From a phage, in sequence record PZ386973.1: a stretch of 64,000 bases of DNA; one strand, 5' to 3'. A program made the translations under genes and the position numbers. Position 1 is the first letter of the stretch. Every line of letters starts with the position of its first letter. Shown piece after piece: positions 5,605 to 55,497 of the stretch. The notes under the pieces are model-generated. The model did not search any database. It was not told the origin of the DNA and saw only the letters and a list, made by a program, of their open reading frames with translations.

Positions 5605-5624
5605 TACAGGCTTTTCAGCCGATA

Positions 5625-5652
5625 AGGAGAGCTTCGGCTCTCCTTTTTTATT
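5625..5652 (+). terminator. Intrinsic terminator after major capsid gene
   Basis: AGGAGAGC-TTCG-GCTCTCCT hairpin followed by TTTTTTATT. Confidence 0.75.
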
Positions 5653-5663
5653 GGGAAAAATAA

Positions 5664-6176
5664 ATGCAAATCATTACAGCCGAAGATTATAGGTTATATG
5701 GTAGCTTAAAACGACCTGAACTAGAATCTGGTGTAGAAATGATGATTACTGCTGCCAATGCGCTGATTACTAGCCTTCTAGGCATGGATGATGCTGATGC
5801 GGTAGACCAGCTAATCAATACAAAACCTACACGTAGAAAATATTTTCTGAGTTCGCCCTCTGCTACCTCTGTAACTAAAGTGACGATTAACGATAATGAA
5901 ATTGACCCAGAGCAGTATAGGCTATACTCTGACGGGATTATACTTCTTAAATTTAATCCTCCAGAAGGTTATATGGATGTAGCATATACACAAGGTGGAT
6001 TCAATCCAATACCTGAAGATCTCAAACTTGCAGCATGTATGCTAGTAGATCATTGGCACAAACAAGATTATCGCCAAGCTAAAACAATTGGTGGCGAAAC
6101 AGTAACCTTCAATAACACTAAATCTGGTATTCCAGAGCATATTCGTACTATTATTGAAGTATATAGGAGAGTATAA
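5664..6176 (+). CDS. Head completion / head-tail connector protein
   Basis: 170-aa ORF directly after capsid gene terminator; position in head-tail joining block. Confidence 0.5.
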   Translation: MQIITAEDYRLYGSLKRPELESGVEMMITAANALITSLLGMDDADAVDQLINTKPTRRKYFLSSPSATSVTKVTINDNEIDPEQYRLYSDGIILLKFNPPEGYMDVAYTQGGFNPIPEDLKLAACMLVDHWHKQDYRQAKTIGGETVTFNNTKSGIPEHIRTIIEVYRRV

Positions 6177-6943
6177 TGTCTCTTTCCGATCTAGCTAGAC
6201 AAATTATTAAAGAGCAGCTAGATACTGCAAGCCGATCTGAAAATAATAAGAATACTGTTGTATACTCTGTTGAGACAGGGTTAAAAGATCCTACCAGAGA
6301 TGGTACTGTTGCTCAAGTATCTTTTAAGTTTTCAAAACCTATATCACAGGATCTTCTTAATGTTAGGACAGCTTCTATATTAAAAGCTGTATCCTCTAGT
6401 TTAGATCTTTCTGGAGACTTAGGTGCTCTAGAGAATCTAATACAAGCAACTGCTGGTAAAAAATCCTCAGTAGGTAAAAAACGTTCTACTGGTAGAGTGC
6501 AGGTAAACTTTGGTGATCCTAGTGATGTTGAAGACGGATATTCTGGTGCAGTAACAGGTGCTTCTGGACGTTTTGTGTCTAACAGCAATATGAAGATTAT
6601 ACTAGAGATAGTTGCTAAAGAATACTTAATAAAGGATATGAAAAAAGCTGGAGCACCATTAAAGTTTAGGACTGGTCGCTTTGCAAACTCTTTAAAAATT
6701 AAAGATGTTATGCTTCGTGATTCTGAAACTAGTAAAGGCTCTCCTGAATTGAACGTAACATATAATTATATGACTCGTCCATATTCTGTGTTCAATCCGG
6801 CAGTATCTACATACAGAAGATTATCCCTACGACCTTATCCTGGCGCTAGAAACCCACAAAAACTTATTGGTGAGGCTATAGCAAAAGCTGCAAGAGACCT
6901 GATTCACTCCAGATATAAAATTAAGGTTAATCAAGGAACCTAA
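6176..6943 (+). CDS. Head-tail joining / tail completion protein
   Basis: 255-aa ORF with start overlapping previous stop (ATAATG); position between connector and tail terminator. Confidence 0.5.
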   Translation: MSLSDLARQIIKEQLDTASRSENNKNTVVYSVETGLKDPTRDGTVAQVSFKFSKPISQDLLNVRTASILKAVSSSLDLSGDLGALENLIQATAGKKSSVGKKRSTGRVQVNFGDPSDVEDGYSGAVTGASGRFVSNSNMKIILEIVAKEYLIKDMKKAGAPLKFRTGRFANSLKIKDVMLRDSETSKGSPELNVTYNYMTRPYSVFNPAVSTYRRLSLRPYPGARNPQKLIGEAIAKAARDLIHSRYKIKVNQGT

Positions 6944-6946
6944 TAA

Positions 6947-7432
6947 ATGGATCATAGAACAAGTATTGCACAAGCTATGGTTGATCGAATCTCTAAACAA
7001 ATGGATGGTTCTCAACCTGACGAATATTTTAATAACCTATACGGAAACGTTTCTCGTCAAACTTATAAATTTGAGGAAATACGAGAGTTTCCTTATGTGG
7101 CAGTTCATATCGGAACTGAAACTGGGCAGTATCTTCCTTCAGGCCAACAGTGGATGTTTTTAGAACTTCCAATCCTGGTGTACGATAAAGAGAAAACAGA
7201 CATTCAAGAGCAACTTGAAAAACTCGTAGCGGATATAAAAACCGTTATTGACACAGGTGGAAATTTAGAATATACTGTTAGTAAACCTAATGGATCGACC
7301 TTCCCATGTGAGGCAACTGATATGATCATTACATCAGTTAGTACAGATGAGGGTCTACTGGCCCCATATGGTTTAGCAGAAATAAATGTAACAGTGAGGT
7401 ATCAGCCTCCACGTAGGTCACTTCGCAGATAA
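6947..7432 (+). CDS. Tail terminator protein (T5 p142-like)
   Basis: 161-aa ORF immediately upstream of tail tube gene; size and position match tail terminator proteins. Confidence 0.55.
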   Translation: MDHRTSIAQAMVDRISKQMDGSQPDEYFNNLYGNVSRQTYKFEEIREFPYVAVHIGTETGQYLPSGQQWMFLELPILVYDKEKTDIQEQLEKLVADIKTVIDTGGNLEYTVSKPNGSTFPCEATDMIITSVSTDEGLLAPYGLAEINVTVRYQPPRRSLRR

Positions 7433-7458
7433 GTTACAGATTAGGAGAAAATAATTAA

Positions 7459-8853
7459 ATGTCTTTACAACTATTACGTAATACTCGAATCTTCGTGTCT
7501 ACGGTTAAGACTGGTCATAATAAGACCAACACGCAAGAGATTCTAGTTCAGGATGATATTTCTTGGGGTCAGGACAGTAACTCAACAGATATTACTGTTA
7601 ATGAAGCTGGTCCGCGTCCAACTCGTGGTTCTAAACGTTTTAACGACTCTTTAAACGCAGCTGAGTGGAGTTTTTCTACTTACATCCTACCGTATAAAGA
7701 TAAAACTACTAGCAAACAAATTGTTCCTGACTATATGTTATGGCATGCACTTTCTAGTGGTAAAGCTATTAACTTAGAAGGTAATACAGGGGCACACAAT
7801 AACACAACTAACTTCATGGTTAACTTCAAAGATAACTCCTATCATGAGTTAGCAATGTTACATATTTATATTCTGACTGATAAAGCATGGAGTTATATTG
7901 ATTCCTGTCAGATTAATCAGGCAGAAGTTAACGTTGATATCGAAGATATTGGCCGTGTAACTTGGTCTGGTAATGGTAATCAGCTTATTCCTCTGGATGA
8001 GCAACCCTTTGATCCGGATGAAATAGGTATTGATGATGAAACTTATATGACTATCCAGGGTTCTTATATTAAGAACAAACTAACGATCTTGAAGATCAAG
8101 GACATGGATACCAATAAGTCTTATGACATACCGATTACCGGTGGTACTTTTACTATTAACAACAACATTACTTATTTAACACCTAATGTAATGTCCCGTG
8201 TTACTATTCCAATTGGTTCCTTTACTGGTGCTTTTGAATTAACTGGTTCATTAACTGCTTATCTGAATGATAAATCTCTTGGTTCTATGGAACTATACAA
8301 AGATCTTATCAAAACTCTGAAGGTAGTTAACCGCTTCGAAATAGCTCTAGTACTCGGTGGCGAGTATGAGGATGAACGTCCTGCAGCTATTCTGGTAGCT
8401 AAACAAGCGCACGTTAACATCCCTACGATTGAGACTGATGATGTACTTGGTACATCAGTAGAGTTTAAGGCTATTCCGTCAGAGCTGGATGCTGGTGATG
8501 AAGGTTACTTAGGTTTCTCTAGTAAATATACTAAAACAACTATTAATAACTTGATTGTTAATGGTGATGGTGCTACTGATGCTGTAACTGCAATTACTGT
8601 TAAATCTGCCGGTGAGGCTACTTCTGTTCGGACTGGACAAACTCTTCAGATGAGCGTTGAAGTTGCTCCTTCTTCCGCAAGGAATAAGGATGTTATCTGG
8701 GCTATCACCGCCGGTGATGCAGCTACTATCAATGCAACAGGACTGTTAACAGCAGATGCTAGTAAAACAGGTGCGGTAACTGTTGAAGCTACGGCTAAAG
8801 ATGGCTCTGGTGTTAAAGGCACTAAAGTTATTACTGTGACAGCAGGTGGTTAA
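7459..8853 (+). CDS. Tail tube protein with C-terminal Ig-like (BIG2-type) domain (T5 pb6-like)
   Basis: 464 aa; C-terminal Ig-like segment (AITVKSAGEATSVRTGQTLQMSVEVAPSSARNKDVIWAITAGD...); GGAG RBS. Confidence 0.85.
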   Translation: MSLQLLRNTRIFVSTVKTGHNKTNTQEILVQDDISWGQDSNSTDITVNEAGPRPTRGSKRFNDSLNAAEWSFSTYILPYKDKTTSKQIVPDYMLWHALSSGKAINLEGNTGAHNNTTNFMVNFKDNSYHELAMLHIYILTDKAWSYIDSCQINQAEVNVDIEDIGRVTWSGNGNQLIPLDEQPFDPDEIGIDDETYMTIQGSYIKNKLTILKIKDMDTNKSYDIPITGGTFTINNNITYLTPNVMSRVTIPIGSFTGAFELTGSLTAYLNDKSLGSMELYKDLIKTLKVVNRFEIALVLGGEYEDERPAAILVAKQAHVNIPTIETDDVLGTSVEFKAIPSELDAGDEGYLGFSSKYTKTTINNLIVNGDGATDAVTAITVKSAGEATSVRTGQTLQMSVEVAPSSARNKDVIWAITAGDAATINATGLLTADASKTGAVTVEATAKDGSGVKGTKVITVTAGG

Positions 8854-8857
8854 TTAA

Positions 8858-9754
8858 ATGTTTTATTCTCTCATGCGAGAGTCTAAAATAGTTGTTGAGT
8901 ATGATGGTAGAGGGTATCATTTCGATGCCCTCTCTAACTATGACGCTAGTACGTCTTTTCAAGAGTTTAAAACTCTTAGACGTACTATTCATAATCGTAC
9001 AAACTATGCAGACTCTATTATTAATGCTCAAGATCCTTCATCTATTTCATTGGCAATAAATTTCAGTACTACGCTTATTGAATCTAACTTCTTTGATTGG
9101 ATGGGATTCACGCGTGAGGGAAATTCTTTATTTTTGCCAAGAAATACTCCCAATATTGAACCTATTATGTTCAATATGTATATTATTAATCATAATAATA
9201 GCTGTATTTATTTCGAAAACTGTTATGTATCAACGGTTGATTTTTCTTTAGATAAGAGTATACCGATCCTAAATGTTGGTATTGAGTCTGGAAAATTCTC
9301 TGAAGTATCTACTTTCCGCGATGGATACACAATTACACAGGGTGAAGTACTTCCATATAGCCCTCCAGCTGTGTATACTAATAGCGCACCATTGCCTGCA
9401 TTAGTTTCAGCATCTATGTCCTTCCAGCAACAATGTTCCTGGAGAGAAGATAGAAGTATATTTGATATAAATAAAGTTTACACTAATAAACGAGCTTATG
9501 TCAATGAGATGAATGCTTCCGCAACGCTATCTTTCTACTACGTTAAGAGATTGGTAGGGGATAAGTTCTTGAATCTAGATCCTGAAACAAGAACTCCACT
9601 AATTATTAAAAATAAATATGTTTCTATAACATTCCCTTTAGCACGTATTTCAAAACGCCTAAACTTCTCAGATTTGTATCAGGTAGAATATGATGTAATT
9701 CCTACTGCTGATTCAGATCCTGTAGAAATAAACTTCTTTGGAGAAAGAAAATAA
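8858..9754 (+). CDS. Minor tail protein (possibly tube-like baseplate protein)
   Basis: 298-aa ORF between tail tube and chaperone/tape-measure genes. Confidence 0.5.
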   Translation: MFYSLMRESKIVVEYDGRGYHFDALSNYDASTSFQEFKTLRRTIHNRTNYADSIINAQDPSSISLAINFSTTLIESNFFDWMGFTREGNSLFLPRNTPNIEPIMFNMYIINHNNSCIYFENCYVSTVDFSLDKSIPILNVGIESGKFSEVSTFRDGYTITQGEVLPYSPPAVYTNSAPLPALVSASMSFQQQCSWREDRSIFDINKVYTNKRAYVNEMNASATLSFYYVKRLVGDKFLNLDPETRTPLIIKNKYVSITFPLARISKRLNFSDLYQVEYDVIPTADSDPVEINFFGERK

Positions 9755-10158
9755 TGATTAACTTAAAAGATATTACCCTAGAAACTCGTACTGTCACTCT
9801 TTCATACCCAGGTATGCCGAACTTTAAGCTAGAGCTTAATTATATGTCTCGTGCTACTTCTAAGCGAGTTATCACTTCTGCTAAGCGTGACGAGTGGGTT
9901 AACGGTACTTTGATTCAGGTACAGGATGATGATAAGTTTATTGAAGCTTTCGTTGATGCTGCGATTAAAGGTTGGACTGGTTTGACTGTAGGTGACGTTG
10001 AAAAACTGATGCTGATTGAAACAGATGCTGATCCTGTTACTGAGGTTCCATTTAGTCGTGATAATGCTGTAATGCTTATGCAGAACTCTGCTGCGTTTGA
10101 TTCTTGGATCAACCAGACAGTGTTCCATTTAGACACTTTTCGTAGCTCAAAAGCGTAA
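9754..10158 (+). CDS. Putative tail assembly chaperone (G-like)
   Basis: 134-aa acidic protein immediately upstream of tape measure gene, the conserved chaperone position. Confidence 0.5.
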   Translation: MINLKDITLETRTVTLSYPGMPNFKLELNYMSRATSKRVITSAKRDEWVNGTLIQVQDDDKFIEAFVDAAIKGWTGLTVGDVEKLMLIETDADPVTEVPFSRDNAVMLMQNSAAFDSWINQTVFHLDTFRSSKA

Positions 10159-10219
10159 AGAATTACTAGATGCTGTTGCTGACTTTGCCGATAAATGTAT
10201 TAAAAGCTCAGCATCTAAA

Positions 10220-10588
10220 ATGACTAAACAACAATATTTAATACTTTGTGAATCAATGGGTATAGAACCTGATCCTAAGGCTATGCCTGTTGAACTTGAA
10301 GATTTTCCACCTATTGTAGCTATTAGTATGAATATTTATAATAGTCTAGTTGACTGTTTCATACCTGGCGACTTTCCTATATTTATAGGCAAAGACAAAG
10401 CTGCTTTAGGTGTTTTATTCGATATTTATGGGATTACCGATCCTATAGAGAAAGAATTTGTTCTACACATCATCAATATATTTGATGCTAAAGCTGTAGA
10501 CGCTGCACGTAAACGTGCTGAGAAGCATAAGCCGCAAAACGGTAGAATACCTAACGTTAAGCCGCACGCCAAATCTCGAGCACGGTAA
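10220..10588 (+). CDS. Hypothetical protein; possible frameshift extension of the upstream chaperone
   Basis: 122-aa ORF in +1 frame relative to 9754..10158; that frame is open from 10133; no SD upstream of ATG 10220. Confidence 0.45.
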   Translation: MTKQQYLILCESMGIEPDPKAMPVELEDFPPIVAISMNIYNSLVDCFIPGDFPIFIGKDKAALGVLFDIYGITDPIEKEFVLHIINIFDAKAVDAARKRAEKHKPQNGRIPNVKPHAKSRAR

Positions 10589-10623
10589 AAGTTTCCTCCA
10601 ATGGGCGTTCCACGATGAGGCTT

Positions 10624-10657
10624 GGCTCTGGGTGATTTGCCCAGAGCCTTTTTTATT
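10624..10657 (+). terminator. Intrinsic terminator upstream of tape measure gene
   Basis: GGCTCTGGG-loop-CCCAGAGCC followed by TTTTTTATT. Confidence 0.75.
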
Positions 10658-10671
10658 GGGAAAAATAAAAT

Positions 10672-13600
10672 ATGACTGATAAGCTAATACGAGAATTACT
10701 AATAGACGTTAAACAGAAGGGGGCAACCCGTACTGCAAAGTCTATTGAAAACGTATCTGATGCATTAGAAAATGCTGCTGCTGCTTCCGAACTGACAAAT
10801 GAACAGTTAGGTAAAATGCCCAAAACTCTATACTCCATTGAGAGGGCAGCAGATAGAGCAGCAAAAAGTCTTACTAAAATGCAGGCTAGTAGGGGTATGC
10901 TTAGTGTTACTAAATCTATTAATGATATAGGAGCTAAGCTGGACGACCTTGCTATTACAATGATCGAGGTAGCTGATAAGCTAGAAGTTGGATTCGATGG
11001 GGTTTCTAGATCTGTTAAAACAATGGGCAATGATGTTGCAGCTGCAACAGAGAAAGTTCAAGATAGGTTATACGATACTAATAGGGCTTTAGGAGGTACG
11101 GCTAAAGGCTTTAATGATACTACTGGTGCTGCTGGTAGAGCTTCTAGAGCTATTGGTAATACTTCTGGTTCAGCACGCGGTGCAACTCGTGATTTTGCAG
11201 CAATGGCTAAGATTGGTGGTAGTTTACCTATTATGTATGCAGCTCTTGCTTCCAACATCTTCGTTTTGCAATCTGCATTCGAACAACTTAAACTAGGTGA
11301 TCAGCTAAATCGCCTAGAAAAATTTGGTGTTATAGTAGGTACTCAGACAGGTACTCCTGTTCAGTCTCTTGCTAGATCACTACAAGAAGCTGCCGGATAC
11401 GCTATCTCCTTTGAAGAAGCAATGAGGCAAGCATCCTCTGCTTCTGCGTACGGATTTGATGCTGAACAACTTAATAAATTTGGTCTAGTAGCTCGTCGTG
11501 CTGCTGCTGTTCTTGGCGTTGATATGACTGATGCACTTAACCGTGTAATCAAGGGTGTATCAAAACAGGAAATCGAACTTCTGGATGAACTTGGTGTTAC
11601 TATTCGTCTTAATGACGCATATGCTGACTATGTTAAACAGCTAAATGCTGCTAACACTGGTATAACATATAATATTAATAGCCTTACTACCTTCCAGAAA
11701 CAGCAAGCGTATGCTAATGCTGTTATAGCAGAGTCTACTAAACGTTTTGGTTACTTAGATGAAGTTTTACGTGCAACTCCGTGGGAGCAGTTTGCTGCTA
11801 ACGCAGATGCTGCACTAAGAACAATACAACAAGCTGCTGCTAAGTACTTAGGGCCAGTAATTGATGCTATCAACACAGTATTTTATACTTCTCAGGCTTC
11901 TGTATCCGCTGAAGCAGCTAGAGCTCAAGAAAAAACTAATAGACAGATAGATCCTACCAACGTTGGTGCTGTTGCTTTAAGTTTGGCTGCTTCTGAAGAG
12001 GGCTACAATAAAGCATTAGATATGTATAAGGAATCTCTTGATAAGCGTAATAAGCTAAAATCCGAATTTGATAAACGAATGGAGCAAGCGGATTTCTATA
12101 CAAGATTAGCCATACGTCAAGTTGGTGAAGGTATTCCTGTTGGTCTTGCTGCTGCTGGTGCTTCCGAAGCTAATAAAAAGTTTGTAGAAGAAACAGCGGC
12201 TATGGGTCTACAAGTAACTAGACTTGGTAAGGAAGTAGAGGATTCTACAGAGAACCTCAATGCTTGGAAATCAGCGTATCAAGCTGCTGGAGCTGCTGCT
12301 GCAAAAGCTAATCCAGAGTTCCAGAAACAGATTAATCTACAGAAAGATACTACGGACCCTGATGCTGTATACGATTTTAACTCTACTGTATTAAAAGGAC
12401 TAACTGAACAACAAAAAGCATATAATCAGACTAAGAAAACTGCTAGTGGCCTAGCTAATGATATACAGAACGTTGCTCAGAATACAGATACCGCTGCTAA
12501 AACTAGTGCTACACTAGCAGATGCTATAAAAAATATAGAGTCACTATCTCAAGGTACTGGTAAAAGTGCAGATGAGTATGTTAAAAACCTTAACCTGGGT
12601 TATAACACCCTGTCTGAAATGAAAACTACATCCCAGGCTCTATCTGAGTACGTTAAACTAACTGGTAATGAAACTAAAAATCAGTTAGCAGTTCAACAGA
12701 AAATAGCTGATGTGTATAATCAAACTAAGGATAAGGAAAAAGCTCAGGAAGCTGGTAGACGTTTAGAGTTACAACAGTTAGAGGAGCAAGAAGCTGCTTT
12801 ACGCCGTGTTCTTCAAACAAACCAGGGAAATAAAGCTGTTGAGAAAGAAATTGAAAAAATTCAGCTGGAGAAACTTAAACTTACCAATCAGGGTATGGAA
12901 GCTCAGAAGAAGGTCAAGGATTACACAGATAAAATTCTTGGTGTAGATCGTGAGATAGCTCTTCTGAATGACCGTACTATGACTGCTACTCAATATAGAT
13001 TAGCTCAGTTAAAGCTAGAACTAACTATAGAGAAAGAGAAGTACGAATGGTATACAAAACAAGCGGATAAACAGAAAGAGGCGGAACAGTCTAGACGTGC
13101 TCAAGCACAAATAAGTAGAGAAATATGGGAAGCAGAAAAACAAGCTACCTCAACCCATGTATCTGCTCTCATGGATGCACTAGAAGTTAGCCAAACACAA
13201 AGAAATGTTACTGGCCAATCTCAAATTCTTACGGAAAGATTATCCATTCTGCAGCAACAGCTGGAACTATCTAAGGGTAACACGGAAGAAGAGCTTAAAT
13301 ATCGTAATGAGATTTATAAAACTGCTGCTGCTCTAGAACAACTTAGAAAGCAGAGGGATAGTCAGATGCAGCAACAGGTAGGATCCTCTGTGGGTGCTGT
13401 GTACACGCCTACAACGGGGTTATCTGGAGAAGATAAAGATTTTGCTGATATGCAAAATAGAATGGCTTCTTATGATCAGGCAATCTCTAAGCTGTCTGAA
13501 TTAAATTCTGAAGCAACCGCTGTGGCTCAGAGTATGGGTAATTTAACCAACTCTATGATTCAATTCTCTCAGGGATCTTTAGATACTACGTCTATGATTG

Positions 13601-14352
13601 CTTCTGGTATGCAAACTGTGGCTTCTATGATTCAATATAGTACTAGTCAGCAGGTTAGTGCAATTGATCAGGCTATTGCCGCAGAACAGAAGCGTGATGG
13701 TAAATCTGAGGCATCTAAAGCTAAACTGAAGAAATTAGAAGCTGAAAAGCTTAAAATTCAACAGGATGCAGCTAAGAAACAGATTATCATTCAGACAGCA
13801 GTAGCAGTAATGCAAGCAGCAACAGCTGTACCATATCCGTTCTCTATTCCTCTAATGGTGGCGGCAGGTTTGGCAGGTGCACTAGCTCTTGCTCAGGCAT
13901 CTTCTGCATCTGGTATGTCTTCTATCGCTGACTCTGGAGCAGATACTACCCAGTATTTAACTCTAGGTGAACGACAGAAGAACGTTGATGTATCTATGCA
14001 AGCCAGTTCAGGAGAACTGTCCTACCTACGTGGTGATAAAGGTATTGGTAATGCTAACTCCTTTGTTCCGCGTGCTGAGGGTGGTATGATGTATCCTGGA
14101 GTAAGCTATCAAATGGGTGAGCACGGTACCGAGGTAATTACTCCTATGGTTCCTATGAAAGCTACGCCTAATGATCAGCTTTCCGAAGGATCAAGGTCCT
14201 CTTCTGGTAGACCTATTATCCTGAATATCAGCACTATGGATGCAGCAAGCTTCAGAGATTTTGCATCGAATAATAGTACTGCTTTCAGAGATGCCGTGGA
14301 ACTGGCTCTTAATGAGAATGGGACCACCCTGAAATCTCTTGGTAATTCTTAA
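10672..14352 (+). CDS. Tape measure protein (T5 pb2-like)
   Basis: 1226 aa, long Ala/Gln/Lys-rich coiled-coil stretches, Gly/Ala-rich hydrophobic segment near C-terminus (AVPYPFSIPLMVAAGLAGALALAQA). Confidence 0.9.
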   Translation: MTDKLIRELLIDVKQKGATRTAKSIENVSDALENAAAASELTNEQLGKMPKTLYSIERAADRAAKSLTKMQASRGMLSVTKSINDIGAKLDDLAITMIEVADKLEVGFDGVSRSVKTMGNDVAAATEKVQDRLYDTNRALGGTAKGFNDTTGAAGRASRAIGNTSGSARGATRDFAAMAKIGGSLPIMYAALASNIFVLQSAFEQLKLGDQLNRLEKFGVIVGTQTGTPVQSLARSLQEAAGYAISFEEAMRQASSASAYGFDAEQLNKFGLVARRAAAVLGVDMTDALNRVIKGVSKQEIELLDELGVTIRLNDAYADYVKQLNAANTGITYNINSLTTFQKQQAYANAVIAESTKRFGYLDEVLRATPWEQFAANADAALRTIQQAAAKYLGPVIDAINTVFYTSQASVSAEAARAQEKTNRQIDPTNVGAVALSLAASEEGYNKALDMYKESLDKRNKLKSEFDKRMEQADFYTRLAIRQVGEGIPVGLAAAGASEANKKFVEETAAMGLQVTRLGKEVEDSTENLNAWKSAYQAAGAAAAKANPEFQKQINLQKDTTDPDAVYDFNSTVLKGLTEQQKAYNQTKKTASGLANDIQNVAQNTDTAAKTSATLADAIKNIESLSQGTGKSADEYVKNLNLGYNTLSEMKTTSQALSEYVKLTGNETKNQLAVQQKIADVYNQTKDKEKAQEAGRRLELQQLEEQEAALRRVLQTNQGNKAVEKEIEKIQLEKLKLTNQGMEAQKKVKDYTDKILGVDREIALLNDRTMTATQYRLAQLKLELTIEKEKYEWYTKQADKQKEAEQSRRAQAQISREIWEAEKQATSTHVSALMDALEVSQTQRNVTGQSQILTERLSILQQQLELSKGNTEEELKYRNEIYKTAAALEQLRKQRDSQMQQQVGSSVGAVYTPTTGLSGEDKDFADMQNRMASYDQAISKLSELNSEATAVAQSMGNLTNSMIQFSQGSLDTTSMIASGMQTVASMIQYSTSQQVSAIDQAIAAEQKRDGKSEASKAKLKKLEAEKLKIQQDAAKKQIIIQTAVAVMQAATAVPYPFSIPLMVAAGLAGALALAQASSASGMSSIADSGADTTQYLTLGERQKNVDVSMQASSGELSYLRGDKGIGNANSFVPRAEGGMMYPGVSYQMGEHGTEVITPMVPMKATPNDQLSEGSRSSSGRPIILNISTMDAASFRDFASNNSTAFRDAVELALNENGTTLKSLGNS

Positions 14353-14358
14353 TATTGG

Positions 14359-14387
14359 AGGAGGACTTTATGTCCTCCTTTTCTTTA
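14359..14387 (+). terminator. Intrinsic terminator after tape measure gene
   Basis: AGGAGGAC-TTTAT-GTCCTCCT followed by TTTTCTTT. Confidence 0.7.
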
Positions 14388-14405
14388 TGGAAAAATAAAA
14401 ATTTC

Positions 14406-14434
14406 TTGATAAAATTTTCCAATACTATTATAAT
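14406..14434 (+). promoter_or_regulatory. Sigma70-like promoter upstream of distal tail protein gene
   Basis: TTGATA - 17 bp - TATAAT immediately after tape measure terminator. Confidence 0.5.
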
Positions 14435-14461
14435 ATTGTTATTAAAGAGGAGAAATTAACT

Positions 14462-20030: not shown

Positions 20031-20453
20031 ATGAGTACAGAAAATAGAGTTATTGATTTAGTAGTAGACGAAAACGTACCTTATGGTTTACTTATGCAAT
20101 TTATGGATGTGGATGATAGTGTTTACCCTTCTACATCTAAACCAGTAGATCTTACTGGTTTCTCCCTAAGAGGTACTATTAAAAGTAACCTAGAAGATGG
20201 GGCTGAAACTTTAGCATCTTTTACTACGTCTATTATCGATGCTAAGCAAGGAGTAGCATCAATAAGTCTACCTATTAGTGCCGTAACTACTATTGCATCT
20301 AAAGCATCCAAAGAAAGGGACAGATATAATCCTAGACAAAGATTAGCGGGGTATTATGATGTGATAATTACCAGAACAGCTGTTGGCAGTGCTGCTAGTT
20401 CTTTCCGTATTATGGAAGGCAAAGTTTATATTAGCGATGGGGTAACTCAATAA
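20031..20453 (+). CDS. Collar / fibre attachment protein (T5 p132-like)
   Basis: 140-aa ORF immediately upstream of the tail fibre gene. Confidence 0.55.
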
Positions 20454-23400
20454 TGGCTATAACTAAAATAATCTTACAACAAATGGTCACCATGGACCAA
20501 AATAGTATAACTGCAAGTAAATATCCTAAGTATACAGTTGTACTTTCTAATTCCATTAGCTCTATTACAGCAGGAGAACTAACTGCCGCCATAGAATCCT
20601 CTAAAGCTTCTGCAGCAGCAGCTAAACAATCAGAGATTAATGCTAAGCAGTCAGAGTTAAATGCCAAAGATTCTGAGAATGAGGCAGAAATTTCTGCAGC
20701 ATCTTCCCAGCAATCTGCAGCTCAGTCTGCTTCTTCTGCTACTGCTTCTGCTAATAGTGCTAAAGCTGCAAAAACTTCCGAAACTAACGCAAAAGCTAGT
20801 GAGACCGCTGCTAAAACTTCAGAAACTAATGCAAAGGCTAGTGAAACAGCAGCTAAAGCTTCTGAGACTAATGCTAACAGTAGTAAAACTGCTGCGGCTG
20901 CATCTGCTTCAGCAGCAAAAACCTCAGAAACTAATGCTGCTGCATCTGCATCTGCTGCAAAAACTTCAGAAACTAATGCAAAGGCTAGTGAAACAGCAGC
21001 TAAAGCTTCTGAGACTAATGCAAAGGCTAGCGAGTTAAAGGCTAAGGAATATGCGGATATAGTTGCTCCTAGTAATTTTCTTTCTAAATCCCAAAATTTA
21101 GATGATATACCTAATAAATCTGCCGCTCGCCTTAATCTAGAAGTATTCCATCAATCAAGAGTAAACCTAGATGATACTAATTTAGATACTCTTAGAGGGG
21201 GTCAGGCCGGTTTTTATTATCAGTCCGCTAATGCCCTTGCTACAGCAGAAAAAGGTTATCCAGTTAGAGCAGCAGGATCACTGGAGGTAATAAAAAATGC
21301 TGCTAATACAGTAGATGGTTGTCACCAAATATATAGACCATATAATACACAAGACTACTATTTTTCTAGGTGGTATGATTCTGCCAAATCTGTATGGTCT
21401 ACATGGTCTGCCTTTTACGCACCTGAATCCTCTGATGCATACAGAACTAGAATTGGTCTAGGAGCGCTCAATAACCCTCAATTTGCGAATGTTAATTTAG
21501 TAAATGTGTCCGATAATGCCCAAGCAGCCTCTGGTATTATAAGCGGATATTTAAACAATAGTTCAGGTGCACAGAGGGCACGCTACAGGTTGTACTCCGA
21601 AGTACGTGGCGATAACAAAGAATGGGTTACTATACACCTACAATCAGATACTAATACTAATAAGTACGCAGGATTAAGTATTGATGGAAACTTTCAGATT
21701 AATGGAAATTTTATAGGTAATGCCATAAGCTTGTCAGATGTAGCTACTTCTAAAGTAAACTTGAAGATTGATAGGTTAGATCAGTGGGGAAGCGAAACCT
21801 GGGTTTACAATGCTTCTAAGACTATGCGTCTAGGACTTACTGACAATTCTTGGGGAGCATATAGTGACACAGAAAAAAGGTGGATTCCACTAGACGTATC
21901 CCATGGTGGTACTGGCGGTAATAATACTTCTGATGCGCGTAGAAATCTAGAAGTAATGTACCGTAGATTTTCTACCTTAACAGGACAGAACCTGAATGAC
22001 CTTAATGGTGATTACGCAGGTTTCTACTACCAGAGCCTATCAGCTAATGCAACTACAGCCCGTAATTACCCTATTCAAGAAGCTGGAAACTTAATGGTAC
22101 TACAAAATAGTGCTAATGGAACCCCAGGATGTTGTCAGATATACATTACCTTTAGTTCTAATAGAATATATGAACGTAGCTATAACCCAGGTACTTCAAC
22201 GTGGTCTCCTTGGGGGTCTATTCTTAATAGCTACGATCCTAGTTATTGTAGACAGCTTATAGAACTAGGTTCTCAACATGCTCCTTTATTTGCTGGTTTG
22301 GCTTTAACTGGATATAGTGATAGTACTGTAGCTGCCGGCGGTATTATTAATAGCTATCTAAGAGCTACAGATGGTACTCAAAGGGTACGTATGCGCTTAT
22401 ACCCAGAGAAACTTGCTGAGGGGGTTGCGGCTGCAACTCTACAGATTATGGGGGAGGATACTGGCCCCTCGTATAAGACCTTCCAGTTTAAGAATAATGG
22501 TCAACTATTAGTACCTAATGAACTGAATGCAGATACTATAGCTGTTAGAAATCTTAACACAACTCAACAAAATCTAGGAATACCTACTACAGGATTTATG
22601 GGTGCTTACCAGACTATCAATGCACCTGCTGGTGCTGTAGATGGAAAATATTATCCAGTTATATTTTACACCGGAGGTACTAATGGTAATGGTGTTCTGC
22701 CAGTACCTATATCTATTCGTACTCCTGGTAGATCGGCTGGCCATGAGATGAATAATAACGTTTTTTCTGGATACGTAACTTGTGGTGGCTGGAGCGATAG
22801 CCCTAATATAGCATATGGGGTATTTACTGCTTATGATCCTAGAGAATTAGGTATTCTATGTATAAAAGGTAGTAATAAAGACTATGCTCAGCATATAGCA
22901 GTTTATGTACACTACAAAGCATTCCCTGTACATGTTATGACAGATCCTAAGGTTGTTATAAATGTTCCTACTGAAGACTATGTATTAGGGACTAACGGGG
23001 TTAAATTTAAATTTGGAGTAACAGATGCGGGTGATGGAAATGCTGAGGGTAATGTTAGCAACCTCTTGAACTTTACTGGTGGCGGTTCTGGCTTTTACTC
23101 TAATCATCCATTCCGTTCTGGATTATCTCCTAATTTTGCTCTAACTAATAACCTTAGTACTGGAGATGCTTTTTCTGCTACTGCACCTTCTTTTACTTTT
23201 AATGGTAGTGTTGTTGGTGCTAATAGTTTTTCTGCTAGAGGTGATGCTGTAACAAAAAATACGTACACATCTCAACTGGTAAATAGTGCCGATGCCATAG
23301 TAGGACAAAGTGAGTTTAGGGCAACAGAGGAAGCAGGACAAATTATTGTTAGAGATATGAGTAGTTCTGCTAGTCATAAATTCTTTAACTTCAATAAGGA

Positions 23401-24529
23401 TGGAACCTTTTCAGCTCCTTCTGGTATTTTATCTTCTACTGGTGTAGACTGGAATACACAACATAACACTGTCAATAAGTTTTATGGTATTGCGGGTCAA
23501 GTTAATAGTCCTGAAAACAATGTTGTTTTTGGTGGTGTACATATAGGTTTTAGTGGTAACTATGCTACTCAACTAGCCGGTAGGGGTAATAGATATTATC
23601 TGAGAAGTATTGAATCTGGCACTATAGGTGCATGGAATCGTATAATTACAGATCAATATGCTGATTTTAAAGTCCCTATTTTTATATATAAAAATGGAGA
23701 GGCATTAACCCTAAAATCTAGTGTTAATGATACTTCTGAAAGTGGTTATTTAGCAGGTAGAACTGCTAATAATACTAGAATGTGGCTTTTTGGAAAGACT
23801 GATTCTTCTAAGAGTGTTACTCTTAGCAACGAAATGGTCGGAGCATACTTTACTGTTTCTGATAATATTGTACTAAGAACACCCAGCTATAACGGTGGAA
23901 TATTTGCTGATGGTAGTGGTGTTTCTGTTAGAAGAAGTAACGGTCGGGAATTCAAATATGAGAATAACATGACTGCTGCTAGAAATGGATCTATTCTTCT
24001 TTGGGGTAACACTACCGGAAGACCAACTGTTGTTGAGTGTAAGCTTGACAATGGATATTTATGGTATGCTCAAGAAAACTCTGACGGAAGTAGAGTATTC
24101 AATATAAACGGAAATGCTGAGGCAAGGGCGTTTAATCAAACTTCTGATAGGGATCTAAAGAAAAATATACAGGAGATACCAAACGCAACCCAATCTATCC
24201 GAAAAATTAGCGGATATACCTATAATTTTAAGGATGATGATATGCCATACGCCGGGGTGATTGCCCAAGAAGTAATGGAAGTTCTTCCAGAAGCAATAAG
24301 TGGCTTCACTAGATATACAGAATTGGCAGGCGCTACTGTAGATGGGGAACCACTTATGGGTGAAGAGCGTTTCTATTCTGTAGATTATGGAGCTGTTACA
24401 GGGTTGCTAGTTCAGGTAAGCAAGGAATCTGATAGCAGGATCACAGCTCTAGAATCAGAAGTATCTGATCTTAAAAAGCAAATTGCAGATCTAACGTTAG
24501 TAGTTAACTCTCTACTAGCAAATAGATAA
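20453..24529 (+). CDS. L-shaped tail fibre (T5 pb1-like) with C-terminal intramolecular chaperone (peptidase S74-type) domain
   Basis: 1358 aa; N-terminal SETNAKASETAAKA tandem repeats; C-terminal segment DRDLKKNIQEIPNATQSIRKISGYTYNFKDDDMPYAGVIAQEVMEVLPEAI typical of autocleaving chaperone domains. Confidence 0.88.
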   Translation: MAITKIILQQMVTMDQNSITASKYPKYTVVLSNSISSITAGELTAAIESSKASAAAAKQSEINAKQSELNAKDSENEAEISAASSQQSAAQSASSATASANSAKAAKTSETNAKASETAAKTSETNAKASETAAKASETNANSSKTAAAASASAAKTSETNAAASASAAKTSETNAKASETAAKASETNAKASELKAKEYADIVAPSNFLSKSQNLDDIPNKSAARLNLEVFHQSRVNLDDTNLDTLRGGQAGFYYQSANALATAEKGYPVRAAGSLEVIKNAANTVDGCHQIYRPYNTQDYYFSRWYDSAKSVWSTWSAFYAPESSDAYRTRIGLGALNNPQFANVNLVNVSDNAQAASGIISGYLNNSSGAQRARYRLYSEVRGDNKEWVTIHLQSDTNTNKYAGLSIDGNFQINGNFIGNAISLSDVATSKVNLKIDRLDQWGSETWVYNASKTMRLGLTDNSWGAYSDTEKRWIPLDVSHGGTGGNNTSDARRNLEVMYRRFSTLTGQNLNDLNGDYAGFYYQSLSANATTARNYPIQEAGNLMVLQNSANGTPGCCQIYITFSSNRIYERSYNPGTSTWSPWGSILNSYDPSYCRQLIELGSQHAPLFAGLALTGYSDSTVAAGGIINSYLRATDGTQRVRMRLYPEKLAEGVAAATLQIMGEDTGPSYKTFQFKNNGQLLVPNELNADTIAVRNLNTTQQNLGIPTTGFMGAYQTINAPAGAVDGKYYPVIFYTGGTNGNGVLPVPISIRTPGRSAGHEMNNNVFSGYVTCGGWSDSPNIAYGVFTAYDPRELGILCIKGSNKDYAQHIAVYVHYKAFPVHVMTDPKVVINVPTEDYVLGTNGVKFKFGVTDAGDGNAEGNVSNLLNFTGGGSGFYSNHPFRSGLSPNFALTNNLSTGDAFSATAPSFTFNGSVVGANSFSARGDAVTKNTYTSQLVNSADAIVGQSEFRATEEAGQIIVRDMSSSASHKFFNFNKDGTFSAPSGILSSTGVDWNTQHNTVNKFYGIAGQVNSPENNVVFGGVHIGFSGNYATQLAGRGNRYYLRSIESGTIGAWNRIITDQYADFKVPIFIYKNGEALTLKSSVNDTSESGYLAGRTANNTRMWLFGKTDSSKSVTLSNEMVGAYFTVSDNIVLRTPSYNGGIFADGSGVSVRRSNGREFKYENNMTAARNGSILLWGNTTGRPTVVECKLDNGYLWYAQENSDGSRVFNINGNAEARAFNQTSDRDLKKNIQEIPNATQSIRKISGYTYNFKDDDMPYAGVIAQEVMEVLPEAISGFTRYTELAGATVDGEPLMGEERFYSVDYGAVTGLLVQVSKESDSRITALESEVSDLKKQIADLTLVVNSLLANR
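20760..21040 (+). repeat. Intragenic tandem repeat array in tail fibre gene, including a perfect 62-nt direct repeat (20813..20874 and 20960..21021)
   Basis: Repeated AAAACTTCAGAAACTAATGCAAAGGCTAGTGAAACAGCAGCTAAAGCTTCTGAGACTAATGC encoding SETNAKASETAAKASETNA-type peptide repeats. Confidence 0.85.
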
Positions 24530-26605: not shown

Positions 26606-28444
26606 TTATTCTAGGTAGGAAAATCCTTCTGCATCTTTTTTAACAGTAATCTTATGAGCTAATGGATGCGTATGCCCATGAGAAACAATGATAGAATTTA
26701 GACTTTCTTCCTCATTTAATAGTTCAACAAGAGTGTCAAGTCCTTTAGTATCAATAAAGCTAATTACTTCATCAAGGAATAGAAGATTAATATTAACTTT
26801 ACTAATAGATGTTAGTAGCATTCGAATAGCTAACAGAGTTGCTAGGTTGATTCGACTTTGCTGACCAGTAGAGCAATTCTCCATACTAGTACGATTTCCA
26901 TCATTGAAGATTACTACTTGTAATTTTGTTTCATCAAGTTCAAATCCAAGTGCGAACTTACCGCCAGTCATAATGGAAAGGTATTTATTGATAAGCTCTT
27001 CAAATACTTTCACACTATGCTCTAGTTTATATCCTACTAGATTCTTTAATGCAGCGATCAGAATATCGAGATCAGCAACAGCCTCTGATACCTCATCCAG
27101 TTTGGAAGTAATCTCAGACATTTCTGCCTCAGCTTTCTCAATCTGTTCTAGTTTCGCTTTATATTTTGCATTGGCTAATTCGACATTTGCATTATGCTCT
27201 TTGGCAATTGCAACCTTAGAACGGCCATCAGCGATTTCCTGTTCTAATTGTCGGATTTGCACCTGTAGGTTTTGCACATTGAGTTCTTCAAAAGAAGCAT
27301 CACTCATTGAACTTTTGAACTCGTCTCTAGCTGCTACTGCTTTATCCAAAGCATCCTTTGCTCTAGTATACGCAACGTACTCAAGTTGTTCTTTCTTCAA
27401 CTGTTCTAACTTAGCTTCAAGAGATTGCTTCTCTTTGAACAGAGGGTCATATTCTATTCTAGCCATATCCATTGCTTTTTGAGCAGCAGTTGTATCCAGA
27501 TGAGTACCGCAAGTAGGACATTCAGTATTTGAAGCCTCTTGCTTGAACTTCTGATAACGTTTCTTAACTTCTCCCGCACGTGAGGTCACAATCGTTAGGT
27601 CACGCGTAACACTTGAGATCTCTTCGTTTTGGTCAGTGGGCGCAGGTAAATTTTTGAAAGGCTCGAAAGATTGTTCGGCAACTTGTACAGCTTTGTCCAA
27701 ATTACGCAATTTAGTAATATTAGCCTCTTGAGACTTGGCTAATGCCGCCTTAATTTTCGATTCAGTAAGTTCTTGTGCTAATGGCTCTTCATCAAACTCC
27801 GGCACTTCGACTGGTTCTTGTAAGGTTCCCAAGTTATTCTTTCCATTAAGGATTTTCGTAATTACAGCCATTTGGCCCTGCAAATTATTTAAGGTATTTG
27901 CTATTTCTTTACGATCAGCCTTAATAGTTTCAGACATTTCTTTATACTGCTCTTGATTAAACAAGTTAACAAGAAACGCTTTACGTGTTGCATCGGTAGC
28001 TTTGAGGAAGTCTAGATTTGAACCAACAGATTGATAGATTAGTTTGGTGAAAGTTTGGAAGTCACCACCCATGATCTCTTCAATCATCTTGTATGTTTGG
28101 GTTGCCGTGTGTCCACTAATATCTTCTCCATTCTTAATAAGAGTTACTTTAGCGGTTGACTTGACAACTTTATGCAGCTCATATTCATCATCATCCTTTG
28201 AAAAGTAAGCGTGCATATCATACTCTTTTTTCGGAGAAGACCAAGAGAACAGAGCATCTTTCTTAATACCGCGTGAGTTCTTATTATAGAATAGTTCTTC
28301 AATAACAGTAGCAATTGTAGATTTCCCTAGCCCATTGCCACCAATTAGTTGAGTAACGGGATTCTTATCGAAATGAATTACGATGTCCTTACCGTAAGAC
28401 ATAACGTTACTAAATTTTAGTGTCTTAATTATAATCTTTGACAT
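26606..28444 (-). CDS. SbcC/Rad50-like recombination ATPase
   Basis: N-terminal Walker A (GGNGLGKST), long central coiled coil with CPTCG zinc hook, C-terminal LLFLDEVISFID Walker B/D-loop; start set at ATG 28444. Confidence 0.85.
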   Translation of the reverse strand: MSKIIIKTLKFSNVMSYGKDIVIHFDKNPVTQLIGGNGLGKSTIATVIEELFYNKNSRGIKKDALFSWSSPKKEYDMHAYFSKDDDEYELHKVVKSTAKVTLIKNGEDISGHTATQTYKMIEEIMGGDFQTFTKLIYQSVGSNLDFLKATDATRKAFLVNLFNQEQYKEMSETIKADRKEIANTLNNLQGQMAVITKILNGKNNLGTLQEPVEVPEFDEEPLAQELTESKIKAALAKSQEANITKLRNLDKAVQVAEQSFEPFKNLPAPTDQNEEISSVTRDLTIVTSRAGEVKKRYQKFKQEASNTECPTCGTHLDTTAAQKAMDMARIEYDPLFKEKQSLEAKLEQLKKEQLEYVAYTRAKDALDKAVAARDEFKSSMSDASFEELNVQNLQVQIRQLEQEIADGRSKVAIAKEHNANVELANAKYKAKLEQIEKAEAEMSEITSKLDEVSEAVADLDILIAALKNLVGYKLEHSVKVFEELINKYLSIMTGGKFALGFELDETKLQVVIFNDGNRTSMENCSTGQQSRINLATLLAIRMLLTSISKVNINLLFLDEVISFIDTKGLDTLVELLNEEESLNSIIVSHGHTHPLAHKITVKKDAEGFSYLE

Positions 28445-55422: not shown

Positions 55423-55430
55423 TAAAAACA

Positions 55431-55458
55431 AGGAGATCTTCGGGTCTCCTTTTTCTTT
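55431..55458 (+). terminator. Intrinsic terminator after nrdA
   Basis: AGGAGA-TCTTCGGG-TCTCCT followed by TTTTCTTT. Confidence 0.7.
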
Positions 55459-55468
55459 GAAATTTTAC

Positions 55469-55497
55469 TTGCTAATCTCTACCAGATTTGCTATAAT
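55469..55497 (+). promoter_or_regulatory. T5-type early promoter upstream of nrdB
   Basis: TTGCTA - 17 bp - TATAAT. Confidence 0.6.

Follow-up and report, generated by a model that had tools for sequence, protein, structure and literature searches.

Two junctions in the late structural operons of the phage analysed here probably act as leaky intrinsic terminators, each joined to the ribosome-binding site (RBS) of the next gene and holding the minor virion proteins at a low ratio to the major ones. The stretch we analysed (the window, 64,000 nt of record PZ386973.1) is from a T5-like phage (Tequintavirus), and a search of its whole length found the 23-mer CCTTTTTTATTGGGAAAAATAAA in two exact copies, both on the + strand (table 1). 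The first lies 3' of the major capsid gene and ends in the start codon of the head adaptor gene (p144 homologue), position 5664 being the A of the ATG. The second lies 3' of the tail-chaperone genes and ends at position 10669, 2 nt before the ATG of the tape measure gene. The exact repeat at two sites that had been predicted from the sequence is therefore confirmed. Allowing up to three mismatches revealed no further matches to CCTTTTTTATTGGGAAAAATAAA in the window, and none is expected by chance (0 matches in 100 dinucleotide shuffles). Each copy consists of three parts: the final 2 nt of a strong hairpin, the U-tract TTTTTTATT, and a weak Shine-Dalgarno (SD) sequence, GGGA, with an A-rich spacer.

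Table 1. Features at the three sites and the nearby late promoters; positions are those of the window.
Feature	Position	Strand	Description	Source
Small hairpin GGCU-UUUC-AGCC	5609..5620	+	just 3' of the capsid stop codon (5602-5604)	fold
Site 1 terminator hairpin	5624..5645	+	AAGGAGAGC-UUCG-GCUCUCCUU, C(UUCG)G tetraloop	scan and fold
23-mer, copy 1	5642..5664	+	last 2 nt of the stem; U-tract 5644-5652; GGGA 5653-5656; A-rich spacer; A of ATG	
Head adaptor / head completion protein gene	5664..6176	+	170 aa, T5 p144 homologue	
Sigma-70 promoter, T5 late promoter P-J5	7248..7276	+	TTGACA-17-TATACT	scan; T5 annotation maps to 7228-7302
Conserved non-coding block	10592..10623	+	TTTCCTCCAATGGGCGTTCCACGATGAGGCTT, 32 nt, 3' of the chaperone stop codon and 5' of the site 2 hairpin	
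Site 2 terminator hairpin	10624..10648	+	GGCUCUGGGU-GAUUU-GCCCAGAGCC	scan and fold
23-mer, copy 2	10647..10669	+	stem end; U-tract 10649-10657; GGGA 10658-10661; A-rich spacer; ATG at 10672	
Tape measure / pore-forming tail tip protein gene	10672..14352	+	pb2 homologue, 1226 aa	
Site 3 terminator hairpin	14357..14381	+	3' of the tape measure gene, -16.0 kcal/mol	scan and fold
'Variant' element	14377..14400	+	T-tract of terminator 3 and A/T-rich stretch upstream of P-G25	
Sigma-70 promoter, T5 late promoter P-G25	14406..14434	+	TTGATA-17-TATAAT	scan and T5 annotation

The hairpins that precede the two copies, and a third one behind the tape measure gene (site 3), have the features of intrinsic (Rho-independent) terminators. 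Their stems of 9-11 pairs fold at -16 to -20 kcal/mol, with z-scores of -4.0 to -5.4, and are followed by the tails TTTTTTATT or TTTTCTTTAT; hairpins and T-tracts lie on the sense strand, 19-35 nt 3' of stop codons. The folding energy is -18.1 kcal/mol (z -4.6) at site 1 and -20.3 kcal/mol (z -5.4) at site 2. A terminator scan showed that the CC or CCT with which the element starts at all three places is the end of a terminator-like hairpin, with the T-run next to it. Selection on the stems is visible in relatives, where compensatory changes affect six pairs in the stem of site 2 (10 lineages) and three in that of site 1 across the family (10-11 lineages over both stems). The site 1 terminator is annotated in the records of T5, BF23, VAH1 and Slocum, that of site 2 in T5, BF23, VAH1, PR1 and Slocum, and that of site 3 in T5, BF23 and VAH1. 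Scan, folds, compensatory changes and GenBank annotations thus all bear out the prediction that the 5' part of the element is the end of a terminator hairpin with its U-tract.

The RBS is unpaired in centroid folds. An alternative hairpin between the U-tract and the A-tract was rejected: it comprises six A-U pairs only, is absent from the centroid fold and is not kept in other genera. The small hairpin just behind the capsid gene recurs, as a GGC...GCC stem whose loop varies, in most of the enterobacterial-phage relatives in the family alignment. An Rfam scan of positions 5000-15000 gave best matches far below threshold (E-values of at least 0.25), and a tRNA/tmRNA scan found nothing. Searches of the literature on T5 terminators, late transcription and transcriptomes returned no experimental data on these terminators, and no Term-seq or RNA-seq data for the T5 group.

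At both sites the terminator runs directly into a translation start. A conserved ATG follows the GGGA after 7 nt at site 1 and after 10 nt at site 2, in agreement with the role of minimal SD that had been proposed for this motif, and homologues of the head adaptor align from residue 1, with a coverage of at least 80%, in 554/554 records. The pairing energy of the GGGA is -4.2 kcal/mol at both sites, compared with a median of -5.95 over 58 crude gene calls and with -9.1 kcal/mol for the promoter-driven pb9 gene. At the position of the GGG, Vibrio and Pectobacterium relatives carry the stronger SDs GGAGG, AGGAG or AGAGG (phi3 and DU_PP_V at site 1, phi3 at site 2), which further supports its assignment. 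The A-rich leader, on the other hand, varies between genera. Unlike the window, which has both copies, T5 itself lacks a full second copy: an inserted gene, T5.141, shortens it to CCTTTTTTATT, and the ATG of the tape measure gene overlaps the end of T5.141. The SD motif of site 2 is replaced in this natural variant, which argues that the 12-nt RBS half is dispensable for tape measure expression in T5.

Conservation is much higher at sites 1 and 2 than in the flanking genes or at the third terminator. Among Tequintavirus and Epseptimavirus records, the 65-nt spacer of site 1 is at least 99% identical in 341/565 and the 89-nt spacer of site 2 in 243/544, whereas the surrounding 10 kb reaches 99% in 0/554 records (6 in the 95-99% band, 387 in the 80-90% band). 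In other genera, the site 1 hairpin and T-tract are 0.93-1.00 identical, compared with 0.31-0.58 at third codon positions of the flanking genes; identity of the site 3 hairpin, an internal control, is at noise level there. The sequence of the site 1 hairpin is invariant over all enterobacterial-phage genera sampled. That of site 3 is not conserved beyond close relatives, although a hairpin is still present in every lineage. A motif search in related phages, which had been suggested as a check, showed that the layout is kept across Demerecviridae. The order hairpin, T5-6 ATT, GG(R), 7-12 nt, ATG was found at both sites in Priunavirus, Sugarlandvirus, Novosibvirus, Slocum and Hongcheonvirus. Three Vibrio-phage genera likewise have this order at both sites, and the gene after site 2 is there an extra 252-aa ORF, not the tape measure gene. 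Single-protein searches of IMG/VR from PM135, phi3 and Slocum yielded 0-2 near-identical loci each.

Conservation at site 2 extends upstream of the hairpin into the 32-nt block, which is 94-97% identical across five enterobacterial-phage genera and recognizable in Vibrio phages. The block contains a 1-nt indel and is therefore not coding. The same indel (GGG versus GGGG), together with variable spacing, rules out a coding or frameshift extension through the spacer. No consensus structure was supported for the block, single-sequence folds differing between the enteric and Vibrio lineages. In a metagenome scan with the block, one of 120 among the matches listed was T5-like, and the rest were almost all chance matches.

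Site 3 is of a different kind. The variant element predicted at 14377-14400, CCTTTTCTTTATGGAAAAATAAAA, is present but is only a loose relative of the 23-mer, from which it differs by more than three ungapped mismatches; it shows 75% identity within a 36-nt repeat family (D9). Taken alone, its A-rich half is not above chance (five matches to the 13-mer with up to two mismatches, against 4.1 expected). No start codon follows there, and this half occupies roughly -53 to -41 of P-G25, so that the element cannot be counted as a third copy of the same cassette. The element is the tail of terminator 3 running into the upstream region of P-G25, not a translation cassette. Within it, GGAAAAATAAAAATTT lies at about -53 to -38 of P-G25, and an A+T-rich stretch (14388-14404) lies upstream of the -35 hexamer (14406-14411); judged by its sequence, this tract occupies the position of a putative UP element (-40 to -60 of a sigma-70 promoter). 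P-G25 drives the distal tail protein gene (ATG at 14462), which has a strong SD, GAGGAG. We also considered a mini-ORF in the loop of the site 3 hairpin, with an ATG at 14370 behind GGAGGAGGA, and discarded it, as this ATG is GAG in most relatives.

P-G25 and P-J5, which lies within the tail-terminator gene, 5' of the tail tube gene, are late promoters, as shown in vivo (PMC7472727). They are the only promoters annotated in this stretch, besides calls over site 1 in AY587007 (T5P40) and BF23 (Sigma70Pred). No promoter is annotated as the head adaptor gene's own. A promoter scan made no call at sites 1 and 2, where only 18-23 nt separate hairpin and ATG, and gave weak promoter-like matches inside the genes downstream. 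At site 2 the gap between hairpin and ATG, 23 nt only, is too short to hold a promoter. Judged by their features, the terminators should be strong; even so, the genes that come immediately after them are essential. Since no promoter is annotated before these genes, and there is no room for one at site 2, we infer that both terminators must be leaky.

The gene order fits the proposed control of stoichiometry. The virion contains 12 copies of the adaptor, 40 trimers (120 copies) of the tube protein, three copies of p140, six of pb9 and three of pb3 (PMC11313276). As the original prediction had it, the highly expressed capsid gene precedes a low-copy gene, that of the 12-copy adaptor, and the genes for the 120-copy tube protein and the chaperones likewise precede the tape measure gene (PMC11313276). 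Host RNA polymerase would transcribe the highly expressed upstream genes, capsid at site 1 and tail tube plus chaperones at site 2, and a large fraction of transcripts would end in the U-tract behind the hairpin. Read-through transcripts would carry the head adaptor or the tape measure gene, to be translated from the weak GGGA in an unstructured A/U-rich leader. On this read-through RNA, the U-tract of the terminator probably serves as a landing region for the ribosome (S1). Minor virion proteins would thereby be made at a fixed, low ratio to the major ones. P-J5 would raise transcription again for the tube protein, while site 3 would be a full stop followed by a new promoter. Leaky terminators that are tuned may tolerate less change than full-stop ones.

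The element has also been read as a part of a late promoter, with TTGGGA as a -35-like hexamer. TTGGGA shares 4/6 positions with TTGACA, a similar A-rich stretch lies upstream of the real promoter at site 3, and both the 'putative late promoter T5P40' of the T5 record AY587007 and the Sigma70Pred promoter of BF23 cover site 1. Nevertheless, inspection of the sequence 16-18 nt downstream turned up no acceptable -10 hexamer at site 1 or site 2, the promoter scan agrees, and a transcript would start downstream of the conserved start codons. The start of T5P40 falls inside the gene, and AY587007 starts the ORF at a later ATG, one not chosen in the other records. Sites 1 and 2 thus lack the make-up of a sigma-70 promoter, and we regard this reading as scarcely credible. 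Hardly more credible is that the repeat arose by duplication or gene conversion between the sites, or is a small mobile repeat, kept by chance and with no function in its exact sequence. The two identical 23-mers, direct repeats 5 kb apart, might suggest this, as might the confinement of the exact 23-mer to T5-like contigs in IMG/VR. A scan of bacterial genomes gave five chance matches in unrelated MAGs and none in enterobacteria, which argues against an origin in the host. However, the copies number only two and sit at the same orthologous positions in all relatives, without terminal repeats or target duplications, and the hairpins next to them are unrelated in sequence. In 28 relatives, each sequence variant was confined to one site, with no co-variation between sites within a genome, which argues against ongoing gene conversion, and conservation of each site by itself extends as far as Vibrio phages. 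This is not the pattern of a dispersed or mobile repeat or of a gene-conversion pair, nor does it agree with the 'reused cassette' that had been envisaged. Rather than a mobile or recently copied element, the 23-nt identity more plausibly reflects two junctions, each conserved independently, built on the same plan and both under strong purifying selection. Exchange between co-infecting phages could also keep the junctions uniform if they were DNA recombination linkers or homing-endonuclease targets at module boundaries (head/neck, tail tube/tape measure/baseplate), leaving the 23-nt identity without a role in expression. Related mobile genes do sit exactly at the junctions: they encode CapR and treble-clef domains, one with a weak T5orf172 match, and include T5.141, directly after CCTTTTTTATT at site 2, and, in three relatives from IMG/VR, genes of 189-190 aa that separate the site 1 hairpin from the stop codon of the capsid gene. 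Phage IrisVonRoten has an annotated 'putative homing endonuclease' at site 2. Conversion tracts should reach into the neighbouring genes, but identity ends exactly at the coding borders; in Providencia phage PR1, site 1 is 46/46 identical while the flanking proteins are 56% and 29% identical. Conservation moreover spans hosts that rarely share cells (Vibrio versus enterics), and covariation in the stems shows selection on RNA structure. We therefore consider exchange at the junctions improbable.

Regulation of the terminators is a weightier alternative to passive leakiness, although still an unlikely one. A simple passive terminator has no obvious need for an invariant hairpin at site 1 or for the conserved block at site 2. 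The hairpin and tail of site 1, and the block, hairpin and tail of site 2, could be recognized by a factor of the phage or of the host. Candidates would be a protein that acts as an antiterminator or is bound to RNA polymerase, a repressor of translation that targets the GGGAAAAAUAAA leader, or Hfq/ProQ together with a 3'UTR-derived small RNA ending at site 2. In favour of this, sequence and not just structure is conserved, far above the flanking genes and the site 3 control, and the site 2 block is non-coding and nearly invariant in five genera without a supported consensus fold. Block, hairpin and U6 have the layout of an Hfq-type 3' end, and T5 proteins that bind RNA polymerase shift early and late transcript levels (PMC7472727). 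Against it, there is no known factor and no match to an Rfam family, and the A-rich leader is variable between genera and dispensable at site 2 in T5. A search for conserved pairing targets of a small RNA in the late-gene start regions of 10 lineages found no consistent partner. In Ceto, pVp-1 and DU_PP_V, pairing of the site 2 block with the start of chaperone G ranks within the top 0.4-3% of windows; it is intermediate in PR1 and average in six lineages including ours, and was rejected as inconsistent. Stabilizing selection on tuned read-through could alone explain the extra constraint. It is a slightly slimmer chance that the junctions are sequence-specific regulatory RNAs kept since the origin of Demerecviridae, either read by a factor or, at site 2, giving a 3'UTR small RNA whose seed, CCUCC, resembles an anti-SD. 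If so, read-through or translation of minor virion proteins would be actively timed or dosed. The contrast of site 1, site 2 and the block with site 3 offers a test between constrained, tuned attenuators and a factor that reads them.

Our preferred reading, leaky terminators fused to start sites, rests on stop signals that are already annotated in T5, ordinary in kind and unusually well conserved across the phage family. The terminators in the records of T5 (AY543070), BF23, VAH1, PR1 and Slocum lie at orthologous positions, are essentially identical in sequence and have the same flanking genes and the same P-J5/P-G25. These records call the hairpins only, and none notes the shared 23-nt tail, its fusion to the start codon or its conservation throughout the family. 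The curious exact repeat is thereby explained as two orthologues of annotated T5 terminators, and the reading of the third site is corrected to P-G25. Junctions of this kind might be of use in phage engineering as compact parts that fix expression ratios.

UP elements are A+T-rich regions upstream of strong sigma-70 promoters, rrnB P1 and the classical T5 promoters among them; by sequence, a likeness to them appears limited to site 3, sites 1 and 2 having no downstream promoter. A/U-rich translational enhancers upstream of weak SDs are bound by ribosomal protein S1. Sites 1 and 2 resemble these by analogy, with a U-rich unstructured tract directly 5' of a weak SD and then an A-rich spacer, but the main role of the U-tract here would be termination. 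In E. coli, the intra-operon terminators of rplL-rpoB and rpsU-dnaG are partial and lower expression of the distal gene relative to a highly expressed proximal one, and T-phi of phage T7 follows the major capsid gene 10. Both junctions are, by analogy, putative partial terminators inside an operon, and site 1 also follows a major capsid gene; T-phi, however, acts on T7 RNA polymerase, whereas sites 1 and 2 would act on the host enzyme. Because the start codon comes only 18-23 nt after the hairpin, the U-tract is here, unlike in these systems, part of the ribosome-binding region. The modest added value of the two junctions is that they provide a clean natural example of a terminator U-tract that doubles as the leader of the next gene's RBS.

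The 23-nt element CCTTTTTTATTGGGAAAAATAAA was present exactly twice in the window, at 5642-5664 after the capsid gene (site 1) and at 10647-10669 before the tape measure gene (site 2), with the predicted offsets to both ATG codons. A search of the window allowing up to 3 mismatches gave no third match, and shuffled sequences gave none. The best matches to a 10-kb query around these sites were GEC_vB_N5, VAH1 and BF23 (93-95% identity; 554 phage records matched), and sequence similarity places the window in a T5-like phage whose closest relatives are in Tequintavirus, Demerecviridae. Gene order and strand were assigned from ORFs together with the BF23 and T5 annotations.

Genes, terminator hairpins and late promoters around the three sites
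Feature	Position	Strand	Details
Prohead protease	3578-4210	+	
Major capsid protein	4228-5604	+	
Site 1 hairpin	5624-5645	+	AAGGAGAGC-UUCG-GCUCUCCUU; -18.1 kcal/mol
Head adaptor / head completion protein	5664-6176	+	
Tail completion protein	6176-6943	+	
Tail terminator protein	6947-7432	+	
P-J5, upstream of tail tube gene	7228-7302	+	inside T5.146 (AY543070); predicted TTGACA-17-TATACT at 7248-7276
Tail tube protein	7459-8853	+	
p140 homologue	8858-9754	+	
Two chaperone genes	9754-10158 and 10220-10588	+	
Site 2 hairpin	10624-10648	+	GGCUCUGGGU-GAUUU-GCCCAGAGCC; -20.3 kcal/mol
Tape measure protein pb2	10672-14352	+	
Site 3 hairpin	14357-14381	+	GGAGGAGGAC-UUUAU-GUCCUCC; -16.0 kcal/mol
P-G25, directly 3' of third terminator	14386-14460	+	TTGATA-17-TATAAT at 14406-14434
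Distal tail protein pb9	14462-15076	+	
Baseplate hub pb3	after pb9	+	

Several features of the wider sequence were recorded alongside. The tail-chaperone ORFs are parted by a 61-nt gap (10158-10220, +), and the reading frame of the second is +1 to that of the first; the homologous ORFs of Vibrio phage Ceto overlap. A 1358-aa ORF (20453..24529), by its position probably the long tail fibre gene, contains repeats at 20699-21066 (+) with a 42-nt period and a 137-nt unit present five times (62-81% identity). Between 30580 and 63196, both strands carry 30-60 nt direct-repeat families (for example D3-D7 and 59138/59933/61804) whose 3' ends are -10 boxes of the TATAAT(A)T type and which look like conserved early promoters of T5-type phages.

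The first two bases of both 23-mer copies are the last two of a terminator-like hairpin, and at all three sites every shuffle folded worse than the real sequence. The hairpins of sites 1 and 2 have unrelated sequences, which confines the identity to the tail; this runs from TTTTTTATT through GGGA and an A-rich spacer (7 nt at site 1, 10 nt at site 2) to ATG. The ribosome-binding region was unpaired in centroid folds. Pairing of GGGA with the 16S 3' end reached -4.2 kcal/mol; about 70% of 58 crude gene calls pair more strongly (median of all 58, -5.95), and the promoter-driven pb9 gene reaches -9.1 kcal/mol. The original prediction of a terminator joined to a weak ribosome-binding site was right in kind for both sites. 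Such fusions are not unique to the 23-mer, since on the minus strand a hairpin (AGAGGGGCUUCGGCCCCUUU) followed by CUUUUUAACCA directly precedes the ATG of an SbcD-like nuclease gene (29402..28425); this junction (29433-29402) has no Shine-Dalgarno sequence.

The extension of the cassette to site 3, after the tape measure gene, did not hold. The 24-nt variant proposed there exists at 14377-14400 as a loose relative (75% identical in a 36-nt family aligned without gaps), with its A-rich half at chance level (5 matches versus 4.1 expected). Given where P-G25 maps, it is instead the T-tract of the third terminator entering the A/T-rich stretch from -53 to -41 of this promoter, and not a cassette for translation. 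In vivo, PJ5 and PG25 both show late-promoter activity (PMC7472727). A 9-codon ORF from an ATG in the site 3 loop (14370-14399, +; ATG 6 nt past GGAGGAGGA) was dismissed as a chance feature because the ATG reads GAG in most relatives. Separately, a predicted late promoter, 'T5P40', is annotated over site 1 in T5 AY587007 (locus L213, 414-503; window about 5615-5704), as is a Sigma70Pred call in BF23 (L002, 2109-2189); both are probably wrong, as their transcripts would begin 3' of the conserved start codon at 5664.

Within the T5 group, the spacers of the three sites are nearly invariant (28 IMG/VR T5-like loci, VAH1 and BF23). Across the phage collection, identity was at least 99% in 341/565 records for the 65-nt site 1 spacer and in 243/544 for the 89-nt site 2 spacer, against 0/554 for the surrounding 10 kb (95-99% in 6; 80-90% in 387). 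Identity between sites 1 and 2 reaches 25 nt, ATG included, in four loci. Rare variants always affect one site alone (for example TTATTATTAGGAAAAATAAATG at site 1 in loci L004 and L011; GGGAAAATAAAAC at site 2 in L009), giving no sign of gene conversion between them.

We compared the three junctions in Providencia PR1, Klebsiella IME260 and Roth49, Enterobacter KKP_3711, Serratia Slocum, Proteus PM135, Pectobacterium DU_PP_V and Vibrio phi3, Ceto and pVp-1, whose proteins are 24-70% identical to those of the window and whose third codon positions (31-58%) are near saturation. Even so, every lineage has hairpin, T5-6(A)TT, GG(R), short spacer and ATG at sites 1 and 2; in T5 and the Vibrio phages, the gene starting after site 2 is an extra gene, not the tape measure. 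Compensatory changes affect six pairs of the site 2 stem (for example GGCUCUGGG/CCCAGAGCC to GGCCUAGGG/CCCUAGGCC) and three of the site 1 stem. The GGG position is replaced by GGAGG (site 1) and AGGAG (site 2) in Vibrio phi3 and by AGAGG (site 1) in DU_PP_V, substitutions that support a role of GGG as Shine-Dalgarno sequence. The A-rich spacer differs among genera with no co-variation between sites.

Hairpin and T-tract of site 1 retain 0.93-1.00 identity in all enterobacterial-phage genera, and the site 2 hairpin 0.76-0.91. Site 3 falls to noise level (0.38-0.78; 95th percentile of shuffles 0.69) with a hairpin present in every case, and so serves as an internal control for ordinary terminator drift in these genomes. 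The site 1 hairpin GGAGAGCUUCGGCUCUCC with its U-run also occurs in unrelated phages (for example Vibrio phage K480, 24/24 match), and a near-copy, AAGGAGAUCUUCGGGUCUCCUU, with one G:C changed to U:G, lies at 55430-55451 (+). Its constancy may therefore in part reflect a generic optimum. Downstream of the near-copy come TTTTTCTTTG and a TTGCTA-17-TATAAT promoter (55469-55497), which makes it a terminator-plus-promoter unit like site 3.

The junctions also receive genes. In T5, the 250-aa gene T5.141 (L038, 15520-16272; CapR, treble-clef zinc-finger domains) is inserted directly after CCTTTTTTATT, past the site 2 U-tract; T5 lacks a second full 23-mer, and its tape measure ATG overlaps the end of T5.141. 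The 12-nt half is therefore dispensable at site 2. In three IMG/VR loci (L011, 1819-2388; L014, 1805-2377; L015), related, mobile-looking genes with the same kinds of domain separate the capsid stop codon from the site 1 hairpin, that of L014 also weakly matching T5orf172 (GIY-YIG-like). These junctions therefore attract mobile genes. Vibrio phages carry a 252-aa gene, not related to the T5.141 group, between site 2 and the tape measure gene. Past the chaperone stop codon and ahead of the site 2 hairpin we found a non-coding 32-nt block, TTTCCTCCAATGGGCGTTCCACGATGAGGCTT (10592-10623, +). Its identity is 94-97% in five further enterobacterial-phage genera and about 70% in the Vibrio phages, even though synonymous sites of the flanking genes are saturated. 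The block matched no Rfam family, folding yielded no structure with support, and no late-gene start region paired with it consistently.

The interval from site 1 to P-J5 has no annotated promoter, and the tape measure ATG lies only 23 nt beyond the site 2 hairpin, so the adaptor, tail-completion, tail-terminator and tape measure genes should lie on read-through transcripts. Sites 1 and 2 would then be leaky, or antiterminated. P-J5 would restore transcription of the tube protein, and site 3 with P-G25 would reset it for the baseplate genes. Full-text searches on T5 terminators, late transcription and transcriptomes yielded no experimental data on these terminators. The arrangement fits virion stoichiometry: a T=13 head has about 775 capsid subunits, and the adaptor gene is next after the capsid gene. 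Each virion holds 12 copies of the adaptor and 40 trimers of the tube protein, whose gene precedes those for trimeric p140 and the tape measure, and then pb9 (6 copies) and pb3 (3 copies) (PMC11313276). In read-through transcripts the weak Shine-Dalgarno sequence is immediately preceded by the U-tract, which sits where A/U-rich enhancers bound by ribosomal protein S1 are usually found and might act as one. We propose that stabilising selection, by fixing both the level of read-through and the rate of initiation, constrains sites 1 and 2 beyond the full-stop site 3, which would explain the 23-nt identity of two junctions built to the same plan.

A "putative rho-independent transcription terminator" is annotated at all three orthologous sites in T5 AY543070, the same terminators are annotated in the BF23, VAH1, PR1 and Slocum records, and some records annotate a ribosome-binding site at site 1. 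The terminator features are thus orthologues of long-annotated T5 terminators and little new in kind; the residual interest is in their unusual sequence conservation and in the conserved block preceding site 2.
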